This document shows, piece after piece, positions 6,693 to 64,000 of a DNA stretch of 64,000 bases; position 1 is the stretch's first letter, and each line of letters starts with the position of its first letter. The notes beneath the pieces were generated by a model. That model saw only the letters and a program-made list of their open reading frames with translations, had not been told where the DNA came from and did not search any database. The DNA lies in IMG/VR virus record IMGVR_UViG_3300032007_000052, positions 30,033 to 94,032 of that record. One strand, written 5' to 3'. The stretch comes from a virus (taxonomy: Duplodnaviria; Caudoviricetes). A program made the position numbers and the translations under genes.

Positions 6693-7259
6693 TTATACTA
6701 TATCAGAATATCCTAGAAGCATCTGGTCTTCTTCATAGGAACTTACACCTAAATATCTTTGAGTAATAGCAGGACTGCTATGTTGATAAAAATTCATTAC
6801 TTTAATAATGTTGTAGCCACTTGCTTCATAGAGATTCATTCCACAATATTTCCTAAATGAGTGAGTAGATATGTTTTCATATTCCAAAAAATCACATACC
6901 TTTTTTAGATATTTTTGAACTGATCGTTCTGTCATAGGGAATATGAGATCATTTTTCTTTATTTCATTTTCCTTGATGTATAAGTTCAAATGCTTATAGA
7001 ACTCGTGACTGATGCTCTTGTAGCGTTTCTTTTTTGTTTTCTGCTCAATTATACTAATCTTATAAATACCACCCGCAAAAACGAAGCTAGAGGGTTTTAA
7101 AGCTAATACATCCTCAATACGGATTCCTAAATTTGCTTCGGCTATAAGAACTTCTGATATTCTGATGTTTGGTTTGAAATAGTATGAGCCTGTTCTCATT
7201 GCTTCGATAATTGTTTTATATTGGTGTCTGGTTAACGGTACTGTTGCGTATGCTCCCAT
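6693..7259 (-). CDS. tyrosine recombinase (catalytic domain only; resolvase-like)
   Basis: GIRIEDV, EQKTKK, THSFRK, QHSS, QRYLG. Confidence 0.9.
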   Translation of the reverse strand: MGAYATVPLTRHQYKTIIEAMRTGSYYFKPNIRISEVLIAEANLGIRIEDVLALKPSSFVFAGGIYKISIIEQKTKKKRYKSISHEFYKHLNLYIKENEIKKNDLIFPMTERSVQKYLKKVCDFLEYENISTHSFRKYCGMNLYEASGYNIIKVMNFYQHSSPAITQRYLGVSSYEEDQMLLGYSDIV

Positions 7260-29824: not shown

Positions 29825-31099
29825 ATGGTTTACGTACTTGATCAAAACGGACAGCCTTTAATGCCTACGGAAAACCATGCTAAAGTGCGTGTTCTTCTAA
29901 GGCAAGGTAAGGCAAAAGTAATAAAGAAATGTCCGTTTACAATACATCTGTTATATGGTAGTACAAACTACACACAAAAAGTGACTTTGGGTGTAGACAG
30001 TGGAAGCAAGCATATCGGTATTTCAGCAACTACAAAAGACAAAGTTCTTTACGAGGCCGATGTGGAACTTCGGAGTGATATTGTGGATCTGCTTTCTACC
30101 CGTAGGGAATTAAGAAGTTTAAGACGTAATCACAAGACCCGTTACCGCAAACCACGATTCGATAACCGCAAACGTAAAGACGGATGGTTAGCACCTTCAG
30201 TAAGGCAGAAAGTAGATTCTCACTTAACGATGATAGCAAAAGTACATAAGATACTTCCAATATCAAATATCGTAGTAGAAGTAGCCTCTTTCGATATACA
30301 GAAGATCAAAAATCCAACTGTCAGCGGTACAGACTATCAGCAGGGTGAACAGCTAGGCTTTTGGAACGTCAGGGAATATGTTTTATTCCGTGATGGTCAT
30401 GTATGCCAATGCTGCAAAGGCAAGTCCAAGGATAAGATCTTAAATGTTCATCATATAGAAAGCCGTAAGACTGGTGGCGATGCACCCAACAACCTCATAA
30501 CGTTGTGCGAGACCTGCCACAAGGGTTATCACAAAGGAACAGTAAAACTTCCCAAGGCGATACACAGAGGGATGTCATTCAAGGATGCTGCGTTCATGGG
30601 TATCATGCGATGGGCTTTGTATGAGAAACTTAAGACCATATACCCGGACGTAAGGCCTACATACGGATACATCACTAAGAATACACGTATAGAAAACAAT
30701 TTATCAAAAGACCATTATGTAGATGCTCGTTGTATCAGCGGCAATCATAATGCAGTCAGCAATGGCGAGGTTTTCTATTATAAGAAAGTCCGCTGTCATA
30801 ACAGACAGATACATAAAAACACTATTCTTAAAGGTGGATATCGAAAACGTAATCAGGCCCCATACGAAGTAAAAGGGTTCAGATTATATGATAAAGTCCT
30901 TGTTAAAGGACAGATAGCTTTTGTTTTTGGCAGACGAACTGATGGGAGATTTGCTATCCGCAAATTCGACGGAACCAAGATTAATGAGCAAATGTCATAC
31001 AAAAAGATTAGACTTATAGAACCACGAAAAAATTTCATTTGTGAAAGGAGGACGCCGCTCCTCATCGGGGCAAGCCCCGACGTTCCCGCGGCTGTTTAA
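29825..31099 (+). CDS. iscB: IscB RNA-guided endonuclease
   Basis: PLMP, LGVDSGSK, RRxxRR bridge helix, VEVASFD, HNH (HHIESRKTGGDAPNNLITLC), HYVDA. Confidence 0.96.
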   Translation: MVYVLDQNGQPLMPTENHAKVRVLLRQGKAKVIKKCPFTIHLLYGSTNYTQKVTLGVDSGSKHIGISATTKDKVLYEADVELRSDIVDLLSTRRELRSLRRNHKTRYRKPRFDNRKRKDGWLAPSVRQKVDSHLTMIAKVHKILPISNIVVEVASFDIQKIKNPTVSGTDYQQGEQLGFWNVREYVLFRDGHVCQCCKGKSKDKILNVHHIESRKTGGDAPNNLITLCETCHKGYHKGTVKLPKAIHRGMSFKDAAFMGIMRWALYEKLKTIYPDVRPTYGYITKNTRIENNLSKDHYVDARCISGNHNAVSNGEVFYYKKVRCHNRQIHKNTILKGGYRKRNQAPYEVKGFRLYDKVLVKGQIAFVFGRRTDGRFAIRKFDGTKINEQMSYKKIRLIEPRKNFICERRTPLLIGASPDVPAAV

Positions 31100-34924: not shown

Positions 34925-35092
34925 GTTTTGTACCCTAGTAAAATCAACTGGTTGTAAAACACAGAGATATTATAATTAAATTGTATGCCAGTTTTGTACC
35001 CTAGTAAAATCAACTGGTTGTAAAACTTGAACAATGGCAAGAAGGAAGAAAACTTAGTTTTGTACCCTAGTAAAATCAACTGGTTGTAAAAC
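34925..35092 (+). CRISPR. CRISPR mini-array: 3 identical 36-bp repeats, 2 x 30-bp spacers
   Basis: GTTTTGTACCCTAGTAAAATCAACTGGTTGTAAAAC at 34925, 34991, 35057. Confidence 0.95.
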
Positions 35093-58189: not shown

Positions 58190-58781
58190 ATGAATGATTG
58201 GATAGGCGATACGAACAGTGTAATGAAAATGCTTGCTGCATCAAACCATTGCGAAGAAGAACGGGCTGAGCATGATTATTACGCTACCGAACCAAAAGCA
58301 ATTGATTGCTTGCTAGAAAAAGCTAAACTCGATAAGAACATATGGGAAGTTGCCGCAGGGGAAGGACATTTATCAAAAAGACTTATTGAACTCGGCTACA
58401 ATGTAAAGTCTACAGATCTTGTATATCGCGGTTTTTGTGCGGGGGGGGGTGGACTTTCTTTCATGCAAAGACATATGGGATGGGGATATCTTAACTAATC
58501 CACCTTATAAGTTTGCTTTGGAATTTTGTGAACATGCACTTGACCTTTTGACTGAAGGACATAGTGCATGGATGTTCGTAAAAGTGCAATTCCTAGAGGG
58601 TAAAGCGCGTAGAAAATTGTTTGACACTAAGCAATTAAAGGCTATATATGTATCAACTGGGCGAATTAAATGTGCGAAAAATGGAGATTTTGAGCATATG
58701 AATGGAAGTGCGGTTGCTTATATGTGGGCGCAATTCACCAAGGGATATAACGGACGACCAACAGTCTACTGGATAAATTAA
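58190..58781 (+). pseudogene. amino (N6A/N4C) methyltransferase split at a G9 tract
   Basis: DYYATEP, WEVAAGEG in ORF1; ILTNPPY in ORF2; G9 58441-58449; G8 gives CAGGVDFL. Confidence 0.85.
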
Positions 58782-60157: not shown

Positions 60158-60550
60158 TCATAGATGTAATTGGGTTTTTAAGGCATCTTGGAGTACTTGA
60201 GAAAAGTTGATTCCTGATGCAATCGCTGCGTCGTTTAACCAGGATGGAATAGATAATGTTTTTTTGACAGATGCATTGTTCAAAACCTTGCGATATTTCA
60301 TTGTATCAGCTTGAATTAGAGTTAAAAATTCATCATTTTTAATTTTGATGTTATTGATTGAAGATGGTGATTTTATAGGCAAATGTGAATCCTCTAATTC
60401 TACTAACATCAAATTAAGTGCGTCTTGTGCCATTTCAATTGAATCTTGTAAAGTGTCGCCACAAGTAAAACATCCTTCAATATCAGGGAAGGAAACAGAA
60501 TATCCACCGTCTGATTCTGGCGAAAATAATGCGGGATAAATGTATTTCAT
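60158..60550 (-). CDS. hicB: HicB antitoxin
   Basis: YPA.F....GGYSVSFPD..GC.T.GD, VKKTLSIP.WL, INFSQVLQ. Confidence 0.93.
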   Translation of the reverse strand: MKYIYPALFSPESDGGYSVSFPDIEGCFTCGDTLQDSIEMAQDALNLMLVELEDSHLPIKSPSSINNIKIKNDEFLTLIQADTMKYRKVLNNASVKKTLSIPSWLNDAAIASGINFSQVLQDALKTQLHL

Positions 60551-60579
60551 AAATAAAATCCTTTCTAAAGGAACAGGAC

Positions 60580-60771
60580 TCAGATGAGTCCTGCTGCTTT
60601 ATAAATGTTGTTAGCAGTTTTGGTTTTGACTTCTTTAGAAGGGTGACGAGGAATTTGAAATTTTTTTCCAGTGTTGGGATTAATCCAAATTTCGTGGTTA
60701 GTGCCTTCTCTAAAGAAATGGCAATTAGTCTTTTTTAGAATAAGCCTTTTAATTTCTGATGCAGTTGCCAT
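60580..60771 (-). CDS. hicA: HicA toxin
   Basis: REGTNHEIW.NP.T, IPRH. Confidence 0.92.
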   Translation of the reverse strand: MATASEIKRLILKKTNCHFFREGTNHEIWINPNTGKKFQIPRHPSKEVKTKTANNIYKAAGLI

Positions 60772-61584: not shown

Positions 61585-63018
61585 ATGGCAGTATTAACAA
61601 GAACACTAGAAATGATTCCGATAGGGGATAAGGCAGAAAGAGATAGAATATATACTTGGATAAGGTCATTTATGGACGCTCAGTCTAAAATGATGAATCA
61701 ATATATGTCAGCTTTGTATATTGCTGCAATACAAGAGATATCAAAAGAGGATAGACAGGAATTGAATAAGCTTTACAATCGTATTCCTACGTCAAGTAAG
61801 GGAAGTGCGTTTGATAAAGAAATAGAGCTTCCTAAAGGCTTGGGCGCGGCCTATGGACAGACTGTAAGAGCAGACTTTGATACGTCGTGCGAAAATGGTT
61901 TATTGCATGGGCGAGTAGCGCTTCCTACATACAAGAAAGATTATCCTATCATTATTCCACCTTTGTATGTGCAGCTTAGGAAAGTAAATCAGGAAACCAA
62001 AGGGAAAAACTGCGGTTTTTATGAAGAATATGACAGCTATAATGATTTGTATGATGCTTTGACGCAAGGAGAACCGGAGATTTTTTGGAGTTTTGTTGAT
62101 AAAATGATATTCAAAATCCGGTTCGGAAATCCGTATAAATCAGCATTCCTGAGAAGTGAGATTTTACACTTTTTAGAGGGCGAATATAAAGCAATGGGAT
62201 CTAGTTTGTCAATAAATAACAAGGGCAAGATTATCTTGTCGTTGACTATGGAAATCCCTGAAAAGAAAGTGAAGCTTGATGAAAACACGGTATGCGGTGT
62301 AAGTCTTGGATTTATGCATCCGATTGTTTGCTCGGTAAATAATAACTTTTATAAAAAAGAATTTATTGGAGATTATGATGTTTTTGTTCATACAAGGGTA
62401 AGACTCCAGGAACAAAGGAGAGAACTCCAGAAGAAGTTAAAATATGCTTCCTCAAGTCATGGAAGAGTTAAAAAACTTCGTAAATTAGACATACTTAGGA
62501 AGAGGGAAGCTAATTTTGCAAAAACTATGAATCATAAAATGTCTAGTGATATAGTCAAGTTCGCGGTTAAAAACGAGGCTAAATATATCAATATGCAAGA
62601 CTTAACTTCGTTTGGTAAGGATAATCGAGATAATATTAAAAGCGGTTATGAATTTGCACTTCGTAACTGGTCTTATTTTCAATTACAACAAATGGTAACT
62701 TATAAGGCTGCTACATACGGTATCGTGGTTAGGAAGATTTCTAACGATAATTTGAGCGATACATGCTCGATATGTGGCGCGGAAGGCATCATAGAAGATG
62801 GAGCTTTTATTTGTTCTGATCCTAATTGTCTATCGCATGATAAGTACGAGAAGGCACGTAAGAACGGGAAAGGTAATTACTACTTCAATTCTGATTTTAA
62901 CATTTCTAGGAACGCGTCGATTTCGGAAAATTTTACAACCAAAAAAAGAAAGTCTAAAGCGGAGAAAAAGGAAGAAAGAAAAGCTAAAAAAGAGAAAGAA
63001 AACCTAGACAAAACCTAA
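61585..63018 (+). CDS. Cas12f-like protein with inactivated RuvC (S240, Q338; D437 retained)
   Basis: G.VALPTYKKDYP, GVSLG (for GVDLG), NHKMS, INMQDL (for INMEDL), RNWSYFQLQQM..YKA, CSIC..C, NSDFNISRN; adjacent tracr and array. Confidence 0.85.
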   Translation: MAVLTRTLEMIPIGDKAERDRIYTWIRSFMDAQSKMMNQYMSALYIAAIQEISKEDRQELNKLYNRIPTSSKGSAFDKEIELPKGLGAAYGQTVRADFDTSCENGLLHGRVALPTYKKDYPIIIPPLYVQLRKVNQETKGKNCGFYEEYDSYNDLYDALTQGEPEIFWSFVDKMIFKIRFGNPYKSAFLRSEILHFLEGEYKAMGSSLSINNKGKIILSLTMEIPEKKVKLDENTVCGVSLGFMHPIVCSVNNNFYKKEFIGDYDVFVHTRVRLQEQRRELQKKLKYASSSHGRVKKLRKLDILRKREANFAKTMNHKMSSDIVKFAVKNEAKYINMQDLTSFGKDNRDNIKSGYEFALRNWSYFQLQQMVTYKAATYGIVVRKISNDNLSDTCSICGAEGIIEDGAFICSDPNCLSHDKYEKARKNGKGNYYFNSDFNISRNASISENFTTKKRKSKAEKKEERKAKKEKENLDKT

Positions 63019-63033
63019 CAAAAATGATAAAAT
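63005..63033 (+). promoter_or_regulatory. sigma-A-type promoter for tracrRNA/array
   Basis: TAGACA-17bp-TAAAAT with extended TG. Confidence 0.65.
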
Positions 63034-63036
63034 ATA

Positions 63037-63176
63037 AACCGTCTCAAGCCATTAAAGCTTGTATAGCCAATGATGCAAACGAATAGAAGTTGCACGACTA
63101 AACAAGCGACGGTAGGTTTGACTGCCAAAAGGTGAGGCTATAAAGCACTCACTAAAGCCTTGGAAATAAATTTGAG
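63037..63176 (+). ncRNA. putative tracrRNA/leader
   Basis: segments complementary to the repeat: aaccgtctcaagc (63037), loop gtttga (63116), gccttg..taaattt (63157-63173). Confidence 0.7.
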
Positions 63177-63719
63177 GTTTGAGACGGTTGAAATTTAACA
63201 AGGTTCTCAAACATTTTATGCGCATTTACAAAAAGGCATCCAGTTTGAGACGGTTGAAATTTAACAAGGTTCTCAAACTTTAGTAGCAATAATTGCAGAG
63301 CAGTTAATGTTTGAGACGGTTGAAATTTAACAAGGTTCTCAAACATGATATAGATGAAGTGTCAAATATATTTGTTTGAGACGGTTATAATTTAACAAGG
63401 GTCTTAAACATGAGATAAGTGATCCTGACAGAACTGATAAGTTTGAGACGGTAGTAAAATGCAAGGTTTTCAAACTCGGTTAGGTGCTCAACGAAGAAGG
63501 TCTAGTTTGAGACGTGTGTAAAAAGACAAGGGCCTCAAACTGGCTTACAGGATTTGATGTTTCATTCCTTGTTTGGGATAGATTACAAGGTTCTCAAACA
63601 GGTGCGGTTATTCTTTTTGCAAAAATGCAAGGCCTCAAACAAGGATACTTATTTAATTATAGATAGCCAGTTGGTTGAGTTAGGCATCAAACTGTAAGAA
63701 GGTGTTTTAGGCATCAAAC
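63177..63719 (+). CRISPR. CRISPR array: 36-bp repeats, 29-31-bp spacers, degenerating rightwards
   Basis: GTTTGAGACGGTTGAAATTTAACAAGGTTCTCAAAC at 63177, 63243, 63309; variants at 63374, 63441, 63505, 63571; remnants ending tcaaac at 63640, 63692, 63719. Confidence 0.95.
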
Positions 63720-63839
63720 GGCCAGAACGTTTTACATGTATATGATTATTAAAAAGCATTAAAATGATATAGTTTGATGTGTTGACACATTAAATATTGA
63801 CAACATATACTAAAAATAGAGAAAGAATAACTTAGAATG

Positions 63840-63867
63840 GAAGTAACTGTGTGTTACTTCTTTTTTT
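63840..63867 (+). terminator. intrinsic terminator after the array
   Basis: gaagtaac-tgtgt-gttacttc followed by T7. Confidence 0.8.
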
Positions 63868-63873
63868 GTCACA

Positions 63874-64000
63874 AAAACCTAGACAAAACCTAACAAAAAT
63901 GATAAAATATAAACCGTCTCAAGCCATTAAAGCTTGTATAGCCAATGATGCAAACGAATAGAAGTTGCACGACTAAACAAGCGACGGTAGGTTTGACTGC
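63874..64000 (+). repeat. exact copy of promoter + tracrRNA (62999-63125)
   Basis: 127 bp identical up to the window end. Confidence 0.92.

Follow-up and report, generated by a model that had tools for sequence, protein, structure and literature searches.

One end of the 64,000-nucleotide stretch of viral DNA analysed here (Duplodnaviria; Caudoviricetes; IMG/VR record IMGVR_UViG_3300032007_000052, positions 30,033 to 94,032; this whole stretch is called the window below) carries a gene for a Cas12f-like protein (61585..63018, + strand), which we refer to as dCas12f. The initial annotation, made from the letters alone, had described a promoter, an RNA resembling a trans-activating CRISPR RNA (tracrRNA), a multi-spacer CRISPR array and a terminator downstream of this gene, and we located all of them between 63005 and 63868. 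The protein has lost two of the three catalytic residues of its RuvC domain, and one spacer of the array matches the host restriction gene hsdR.

Fold and RuvC residues of dCas12f

The open reading frame (ORF) of 477 aa is full-length, with WED, REC, RuvC and TNB domains, as judged from hidden Markov model (HMM) profiles, PDB structures, an AlphaFold2 model searched with Foldseek and a table of catalytic triads. It matches the NCBIfam model guided_TnpB (1.3e-33) and the Pfam domain Cas12f1-like_TNB. The closest solved structures found by HMMER are Al3Cas12f (9NZO/9NZR, 1.9e-48) and CnCas12f1 (8HR5, 1e-47), which are active, dimeric, tracr-dependent nucleases with T-rich protospacer-adjacent motifs (PAMs) (PMC13186708). 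The AlphaFold2 model, built from 77 homologues with a mean predicted local distance difference test score of 86, shows a Cas12f fold: the top ten Foldseek matches are all Cas12f structures, and the lower ones include the dCas12f of the sigmaE system, TnpB, Cas12k and Cas12m. The four cysteines of the zinc finger (C394, C397, C410 and C415) are all kept.

Type V-F Cas12f proteins carry a D/E/D triad, and here the triad reads S/Q/D. Codon 240 in RuvC-I is AGT (62302-62304), which gives S in GVSLG, and codon 338 in RuvC-II is CAA (62596-62598), which gives Q in INMQDL; the D of RuvC-III is retained in NSDFN (codon 437, GAT, 62893-62895). HMMER pairs these motifs with those of 9NZO/8HR5 (GVSLG with GVDLG, INMQDL with IQMERL/INMELL, and NSDFN with NADWN/NADYN), and on this alignment to Al3Cas12f and CnCas12f1 S240, Q338 and D437 occupy the RuvC-I, -II and -III positions. 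Codons and alignment therefore both agree with the initial annotation, which had read a Cas12f/TnpB-fold protein with S240, Q338 and only D437 left. By its sequence, the protein is a nuclease-dead derivative of type V-F and not a canonical member.

The rest of the protein is much less altered. We called a column conserved when it was at least 90 % conserved in the active relatives, which gave 109 columns. The phage protein keeps 89 of them, while its active sisters lose 11-13, and the extra losses gather at the RuvC motifs (V237C, D240S, A247I, E338Q, P387N, T390L, A436S and A440I). From this pattern it looks as if catalysis was specifically lost and the remaining protein stayed under constraint. 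The conserved columns, the zinc-finger cysteines and the confident Cas12f fold also bear out the earlier reading of the ORF as otherwise intact.

The substitutions are found across the whole clade. The 90 % cluster of the query comprises 93 sequences, drawn from JGI, ENA and Logan, and all 15 of the members that we inspected have S240, Q338 and D437, the full-length ones being all 477 aa long. S/Q is also present in P0004, a 274-aa fragment that is 81 % identical, and Q338 in P0005; neither a stop codon nor a frameshift was seen in the examined members of the S/Q group. D/E/D is present in 63 of the 77 homologues. In the maximum-likelihood tree, the S/Q/D clade is sister to P0002, from a metagenome-assembled genome (MAG) of Pseudobutyrivibrio ruminis (63 %), and P0003 (61 %), both of which are D/E/D, and the whole group is nested in the D/E/D family. 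The sequences thus indicate that the dead state is derived, and that it has persisted through about 19 % protein divergence. As a rough estimate, several indels would be expected from neutral drift of such size over 822 nt. The initial annotation had named a recent pseudogene among homologues that all keep D/E as the case that would speak against it, but what we see is S/Q persisting without breaks, the 81 % identical lineage included. Scans of IMG/VR and JGI metagenomes with the protein and with a tracr pattern gave no DNA of close relatives, and a search for shorter fragments added a single 85-aa piece.

Elsewhere in the Cas12f family, RuvC residues were lost independently at least three more times (P0042, P0046, P0058, P0059, P0061, P0069, P0073 and P0077). 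The residues found in those lineages are N, H or R at RuvC-I, and L and G at RuvC-II and -III: P0042 reads N/E/D, P0046 D/L/G, P0058/59/61 H/E/D and P0069 R/E/D.

The tracrRNA, the tandem arrays and their targets

Overlapping the last codons of the gene is a promoter-like site (TAGACA-17-TAAAAT, preceded by TG; 63005..63033, +), which would start a tracr-array transcript near 63040. The tracr-like RNA predicted from alignment and cofolding spans 63040..63176 (+, predicted ends) and ends in ATTTGAG (63170-63176). [quoted passage not shown] The central stems, GATGCAAACGAATAGAAGTTGCAC and GGTGAGGC...CACTCAC, are kept in the locus of an active sister (L004), one of them with compensatory differences, and that locus also has a 4-repeat array. 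Judged by these sequences, the phage and the active sister have homologous tracr scaffolds, and no family matched the region in Rfam.

Array 1 (63177..63640, +) consists of repeats of 35-36 nt and spacers S1-S7 of 29-31 nt. The full repeats R1-R6 start at 63177, 63243, 63309, 63374, 63441 and 63505, R7 is cut short (63571-63599) and only a remnant is left of R8 (about 63619-63640); repeat identity falls with the distance from the tracr. A decayed tail follows (63641..63719, +), made of spacer-like stretches and two repeat remnants which end in GGCATCAAAC (63674-63692 and 63705-63719). The module is closed by an intrinsic terminator with a 9-bp stem followed by T7 (63839..63868, +). Between the decayed end of the array and this terminator there is another promoter-like site, which is near the consensus (TTGACA-18-TATACT, 63782-63811); a transcript from it would be only about 45 nt long unless the terminator is read through into the next module.

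This next module starts at 63874 (63874..64000, +) as an exact copy of 62999-63125, that is of the gene 3′ end, the promoter (identical copy at 63880-63908) and the tracr. The junction at 63869-63874 is unique sequence, and the tandem duplication is therefore real. The window covers the final 64 kb of one contig of 94,032 bp and ends where the contig ends; the contig is circular, its first 112 nt being the same as its last 112 nt. Module 2 crosses this circular junction into contig 1-552, where the tracr continues, followed by ATTTGAG, array 2 (contig 158-512, 5-6 repeats) and a terminator (515-549). Promoters and terminators are intact in both modules. The second tracr is identical to the first over about 120 nt, with two small indels near the 3′ end, while the repeat of array 2 differs from that of array 1 at 5 of 36 positions. 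The two arrays share two trailer-side spacers, with 3 differences each over 29-30 nt. One of these old spacers is A1S5 (63476..63504, +; its counterpart A2S3 at contig 327-355 has 3 differences), and the other is A1S6 (63541..63570, +; TGGCTTACAGGATTTGATGTT...), which equals the sense strand of a host hsdR gene and has its array 2 variant, A2S4, at contig 392-421, with 29/30 identity to that hsdR gene. The leader-side spacers are unique, four in array 1 and two in array 2, and this is the polarity expected of arrays which have grown after the duplication. The near-identity of the tracrs compared with the divergence of repeats and spacers suggests either that gene conversion has acted on the tracr or that array 2 was acquired from a related phage. 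In the wider Cas12f family, arrays lie beside the gene in 29 of the 36 loci checked.

For the host targets, we used 401 genomes sampled from the Lachnospiraceae, the family of the Pseudobutyrivibrio MAG, and 34 genomes of the genus Pseudobutyrivibrio. The best match of either array in the 401 genomes was the shared old spacer A1S6/A2S4. At one site in genome G285, A2S4 is identical at 30 of 31 positions (E 1.2e-7, single genome) and A1S6 at 29 of 31; the same hsdR site is matched in at least 10 of the 401 family genomes and in 4 of the 34 genus-level ones, which makes at least 14 Lachnospiraceae genomes. The target in G285 is an ORF of 1029 aa whose Pfam domains (HSDR_N, SWI2_SNF2, T1R_D3 and T1RH-like_C) identify it as the R subunit of a type I restriction enzyme (HsdR), and the matched stretch encodes the helicase motif M-WLTGFDVP-SL. 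It stands in the order hsdS, FRG-domain gene, hsdR, DndB-like gene and further defence-like genes, all on one strand. All 11 target loci that were read have the match on the sense strand inside a long ORF (407-980 aa) and the 5′ flank (G/A)T(T/A/G)GATATG.

The first 21 nt of A1S6 are perfect to hsdR of G285 and the first 20 nt of A2S4 to hsdR of genome G006. Over their first 20 nt the variants differ only at a Thr wobble base, which varies among the host hsdR alleles as well (ACA, ACC, ACG and ACT), and the two other differences lie beyond nt 21, outside the usual Cas12f guide length. On these sequence matches, the hsdR guide has a real and sensible host target.

Regarding the other spacers, the same genomes gave only matches with 2-4 mismatches in the 20-nt seed, which is the chance level, and these fell in unrelated genes and frames (DUF2298, histidine kinase, glutamine synthetase). 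The shared spacer A1S5/A2S3 had no match at up to 3 mismatches in the 401 genomes. Its 19-nt core occurs exactly once in IMG/VR (L135 3463-3481, IMGVR_UViG_3300049846_001778), in the T4-type terminase large-subunit gene of an unrelated GC-rich virus (peptide FIQVLNEEGV); we rejected this candidate, as over the full spacer the match reaches no more than 23/29 and chance alone would give about one such 19-mer. Among 50,697 GenBank phages and the PLSDB plasmids spacers were matched only at E >=0.5, and three spacer scans of IMG/VR gave no match above chance. No spacer matches the phage genome itself over its full length at up to 7 mismatches. Self-regulation was dropped as well, the best 20-nt seed match being 17/20 inside a coding region (window 13630), which is about chance. 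In peptide scans of the spacers against 13 restriction-modification (R-M) loci, only the hsdR spacer rose above the shuffled controls. A1S1, which reads FYAHLQKGI, resembles the HsdR segment after Walker A, but the similarity (14/16 nt in two loci) is not significant.

Leader junctions and the carrier phage

The initial annotation had seen no cas1/cas2 and no insertion sequence (IS) end hairpins around the gene. The search of the complete phage genome for Cas1 gave none, and neither TnpA nor any IS end came to light. Both arrays are preceded by ATTTGAG|GTTT, an 11-mer which occurs nowhere else in the 94 kb; the longer junction ATTTGAG|GTTTGAGA lies at window 63170-63184 and at 151-165 of the contig (L001). 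In the largest group of type II-A loci, the leader has the conserved 3′ end ATTTGAG, and GTTT comes next (PMC5382924). A passage of the same paper, citing Wei et al. [quoted passage not shown] A host type II-A locus from a Lachnospiraceae genome (L101) has cas2, csn2, a leader-repeat boundary ...AATTTGAG|GTTTGAGAGCC...CTCTCAAAC and 30-nt spacers, and its junction and palindromic repeat termini (L101 1428-1470) are the same as in the phage repeat. In the wider Cas12f family we found the junction in only 1 of 80 loci.

The phage arrays thus have what a type II-A leader-repeat boundary has, namely ATTTGAG followed by a GTTT repeat, spacers of about 30 nt and the unique ones among them in leader-proximal position. 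As both arrays begin with the II-A leader-anchoring junction, we infer host-assisted spacer uptake, in which the arrays may be filled in trans by the Cas1-Cas2-Csn2 proteins of a host II-A system. There is one difficulty with this idea. Type II-A systems select a 3′ PAM and Cas12f needs a 5′ one, so the scheme would be workable only with a lax PAM or target-adjacent motif (TAM).

Repeats with the same termini (GTTTGAGA...ACAAGGCTCTCAAAC) were also noticed on another phage contig (L136 3838-4291, IMGVR_UViG_3300045988_179610). There are two adjacent copies and a solitary one, scattered between small genes, with no Cas12f gene within 11 kb.

The contig is that of a phage, because a portal gene (SPP1-type, starting at contig 553) and a Mu-F-like gene adjoin the studied region directly. 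IMG/VR classifies it as a contig with direct terminal repeats, CheckV gives a completeness of 100 %, and the GC content is 35.7 %. The carrier is a 94-kb phage, with gut or rumen Lachnospiraceae as the putative host group. The neighbours of the Cas12f gene are HicA, HicB, a CxxCxxCC protein and unknowns; none of them is a sigma factor, helix-turn-helix (HTH), Tns, nuclease or transposition gene. The HicA toxin has 63 aa and its partner, the HicB-like antitoxin, 130 aa; the two are encoded on the opposite strand just upstream (window 60158-60771, -). Further upstream lies an adenine-methyltransferase-like gene with a TNPPY motif, split into two overlapping ORFs (window 58190-58781, +). The only tyrosine recombinase of the phage is a 200-aa frame (window 6744-7235, -; Pfam Phage_integrase 1.8e-18), which could be an integrase or an invertase. 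A second, unrelated array of three 36-nt repeats (GTTTTGTACCC...GTTGTAAAAC) is located beside an IscB-like sequence (window 34925-35092, +), so that two different systems guided by RNA are present in the phage, dCas12f and an IscB-like one with its own array. Another ORF of 477 aa (L001 6947-8380) turned out to be unrelated to Cas12f.

Proposed function and known systems

On balance we lean, with a good deal of reservation, towards the reading that a phage-borne type V-F effector has exchanged its nuclease role for that of a DNA binder guided by RNA and acts as a roadblock on host hsdR. The tracr and the array would be transcribed from the promoter at the gene end, in two tandem modules. The tracr would pair with the repeats, and the mature CRISPR RNAs (crRNAs), made of the repeat 3′ handle and a guide of about 20 nt, would load into dCas12f. 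With two of the three carboxylates that bind metal replaced by S and Q, the complex would form an R-loop without cutting. The crRNA, which has the sense sequence, would pair with the template strand inside hsdR, and the R-loop at about codon 590 would stop RNA polymerase. Such a block would cost HsdR its C-terminal 40 %, shut off the downstream genes and leave the upstream hsdS (and hsdM) on. For the cell, modification would continue and restriction would cease. In the case of dead Cas12a, guides to the template strand give the stronger intragenic repression, and for dCas9 the reverse is true (PMC5460296). Maturation of crRNAs, DNA binding, repression and a benefit to the phage are thus what we infer for the locus. 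The initial annotation had proposed a domesticated, multiplex repressor and not decay. Those of its proposed checks that were run all came out in its favour. Domestication gains from the clade-wide S/Q, the intact gene, the homologous tracr and the hsdR target, but multiplex action is so far only a possibility, as a target has been identified for only one guide, in two variants.

A bolder version of the proposal, which we regard as possible but put forward only tentatively, is a reprogrammable anti-defence CRISPR interference (CRISPRi). Here the arrays would gain guides via the host II-A proteins and retain 'universal' guides to the best conserved DNA of restriction genes, as allelic variants distributed over the two tandem arrays.

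Several observations weigh against the roadblock on hsdR. A credible target was recovered for only one of about 13 distinct spacers (in two variants), and its GATATG flank is unlike the T-rich or C-rich PAMs of the characterised relatives. HsdR made before infection would be unaffected, which would leave the incoming genome unprotected. The pay-off would then have to come, as a conjecture, from modification of the progeny or from long or lysogenic infections, and the hint to lifestyle is limited to the one 200-aa tyrosine recombinase. The link between the second tracr and array 2 rests on the 112-nt overlap of the contig ends, which lies inside a repeat. Finally, 65 host type II-A spacers searched against the phage gave no matches.

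The alternative that survives best, although we consider it rather unlikely, is that the complex interferes with rival mobile elements by binding alone, as Cas12m or Cas12c do. Most of the guides would then block transcription or replication of other phages or plasmids, and the hsdR guide would be aimed at the R-M systems of competitors or be a bystander. Most spacers are indeed without a host match, as expected if the targets are unsampled viruses, relatives from the Cas12f family occur on phage-like contigs with small arrays, and protection by binding alone is described for Cas12m (PMC11013384). However, GenBank phages, IMG/VR (three spacer scans) and PLSDB gave nothing above chance, and the only significant target is chromosomal hsdR in a defence island. 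The core of A1S5 in a viral terminase gene would fit such interference too, but, as said, this match is no better than the one expected by chance.

Decay of a CRISPR remnant seems improbable to us. After the loss of the nuclease the gene and the arrays would be drifting, and host spacers would be tolerated because nothing is cut. Such drift does not fit an S/Q pair that has lasted through 19 % of protein divergence free of stops and frameshifts, all full-length members being 477 aa long, nor does it fit the retention of the conserved non-catalytic columns and of the zinc finger. Over more than 120 nt the two tracrs do not differ, and the promoters and terminators are intact. The shared spacers do differ by 10 % between the arrays, but the first 20-21 nt of the hsdR guides are perfect to real alleles, and the variants have two of their three differences past nt 21. 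The remnants at the end of array 1 fit decay at first sight, yet repeat decay at the trailer end is normal in live arrays. The absence of the adaptation module (no Cas1 in the phage genome) and the loss of RuvC residues in several other family lineages remain on the side of decay.

We give equally little credence to an RNA-guided recruiter, in which dCas12f would bring a sigma factor, a transposase or a nuclease acting in trans. Known dead relatives of Cas12 do recruit partners (dCas12f-sigmaE, PMC13472631; Cas12k is among the fold matches), and the phage also encodes IscB with an array of its own. However, the repeat of the IscB array is unrelated, no gene for a sigma factor, HTH protein, Tns protein or nuclease adjoins the module (the neighbours being HicAB, the CxxCxxCC protein and unknowns), and the protein is full length, lacking the C-terminal truncation of the sigmaE-linked forms.

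In the RuvC fold, the loss of one carboxylate stops cleavage. That the protein still cuts DNA or RNA by residual or alternative catalysis (D339, D437 or the second protomer of the dimer), which would make the system one of ordinary interference, is highly improbable, even if D437 and the adjoining D339 are conserved and Cas12f works as a dimer (PMC13186708): both protomers have S and Q, D339 is not conserved in Al3Cas12f (MERL) or CnCas12f1 (MELL), a single RuvC alanine substitution abolished interference by the phage Cas12r (10.64898/2026.04.20.719267), and a cutting enzyme with a guide for chromosomal hsdR would kill the host.

With type V-F Cas12f (CnCas12f1, 8HR5; Al3Cas12f, 9NZO/9NZR; AsCas12f; Un1Cas12f/Cas14a) the phage protein shares the fold, the domain order and the TNB zinc finger, and its locus shares the tracrRNA between gene and array (here predicted), the 36-nt repeats and the spacers of about 30 nt. 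It differs from them in the change of D to S in RuvC-I and of E to Q in RuvC-II. The locus lies on a phage and lacks cas1/cas2/cas4, which are usual for V-F1 though not universal; its tracr-array module occurs twice in tandem, and the sole target identified for it is a host gene.

The TldR proteins are TnpB-like nuclease-dead repressors, some of them prophage-encoded repressors of fliC (flagellin) (10.1101/2023.11.30.569447; PMC13418256). Like them, dCas12f is a nuclease-dead descendant of TnpB/Cas12 that a phage would use to repress a host gene. TldR has one omega-RNA-like guide fixed beside its gene, with no array or tracr, and targets flagellin promoters; the dCas12f locus does not show this single-guide arrangement but a separate tracr and multi-spacer arrays, with the target inside the coding region of a defence gene. 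The dCas12f-sigmaE proteins are naturally dead Cas12f homologues as well, and one such cluster retains CRISPR arrays. This CRISPR-associated cluster, with guides toward efflux-gene promoters, is mentioned in passing by Hoffmann et al. (PMC13472631; PDB 9N9C). The dCas12f-sigmaE systems are chromosomal in Bacteroidota, have RuvC truncated at the C-terminus and are mostly sigma-partnered activators, whereas the phage protein is full length with TNB and D437, carries point substitutions and has neither an operonic rpoE/HTH partner nor a C-terminal RuvC truncation.

Cas12m (V-M; PMC11013384) is a CRISPR-guided type V effector acting as a roadblock to transcription or replication, which is the role we would predict here. 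Cas12m defends the host against invaders, whereas here the carrier is the invader and the target is a host defence. Phage ICP1 carries a type I-F CRISPR system against the phage-inducible chromosomal island-like element (PLE). Active phage-encoded Cas12 systems are the Cas12 'hacker' (10.1101/2025.01.20.633832) and Lalka Cas12r (10.64898/2026.04.20.719267). These phage CRISPR systems resemble ours in being aimed at defence islands or rival elements, often without adaptation genes, but their effectors cut DNA and dCas12f is predicted not to. Ocr and ArdA are protein anti-restriction factors, and restriction can also be alleviated by proteolysis of HsdR. As with these, type I restriction is predicted to be off and modification on; the predicted mechanism, unlike mimicry or proteolysis, is transcriptional and programmed by sequence.

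In the literature found there is no phage-borne array-programmed dead Cas12f, nor any CRISPR guide against hsdR. Natural RNA-guided repressors derived from TnpB/Cas12 (TldR, Cas12m, dCas12f-sigmaE) are a recent discovery. If our reading is true, phage counter-defence would gain a class that can be programmed by sequence, a virus would be seen to keep CRISPR arrays for regulation, and dCas12f, with only 477 aa, would offer a natural protein for CRISPRi that comes with its native multiplex guides. Owing to the II-A-type junction it is also testable whether a phage array can parasitise the spacer acquisition of its host. By analogy with the systems compared here, dCas12f would work like TldR or Cas12m but belong to neither, being apparently a nuclease-dead derivative of type V-F.

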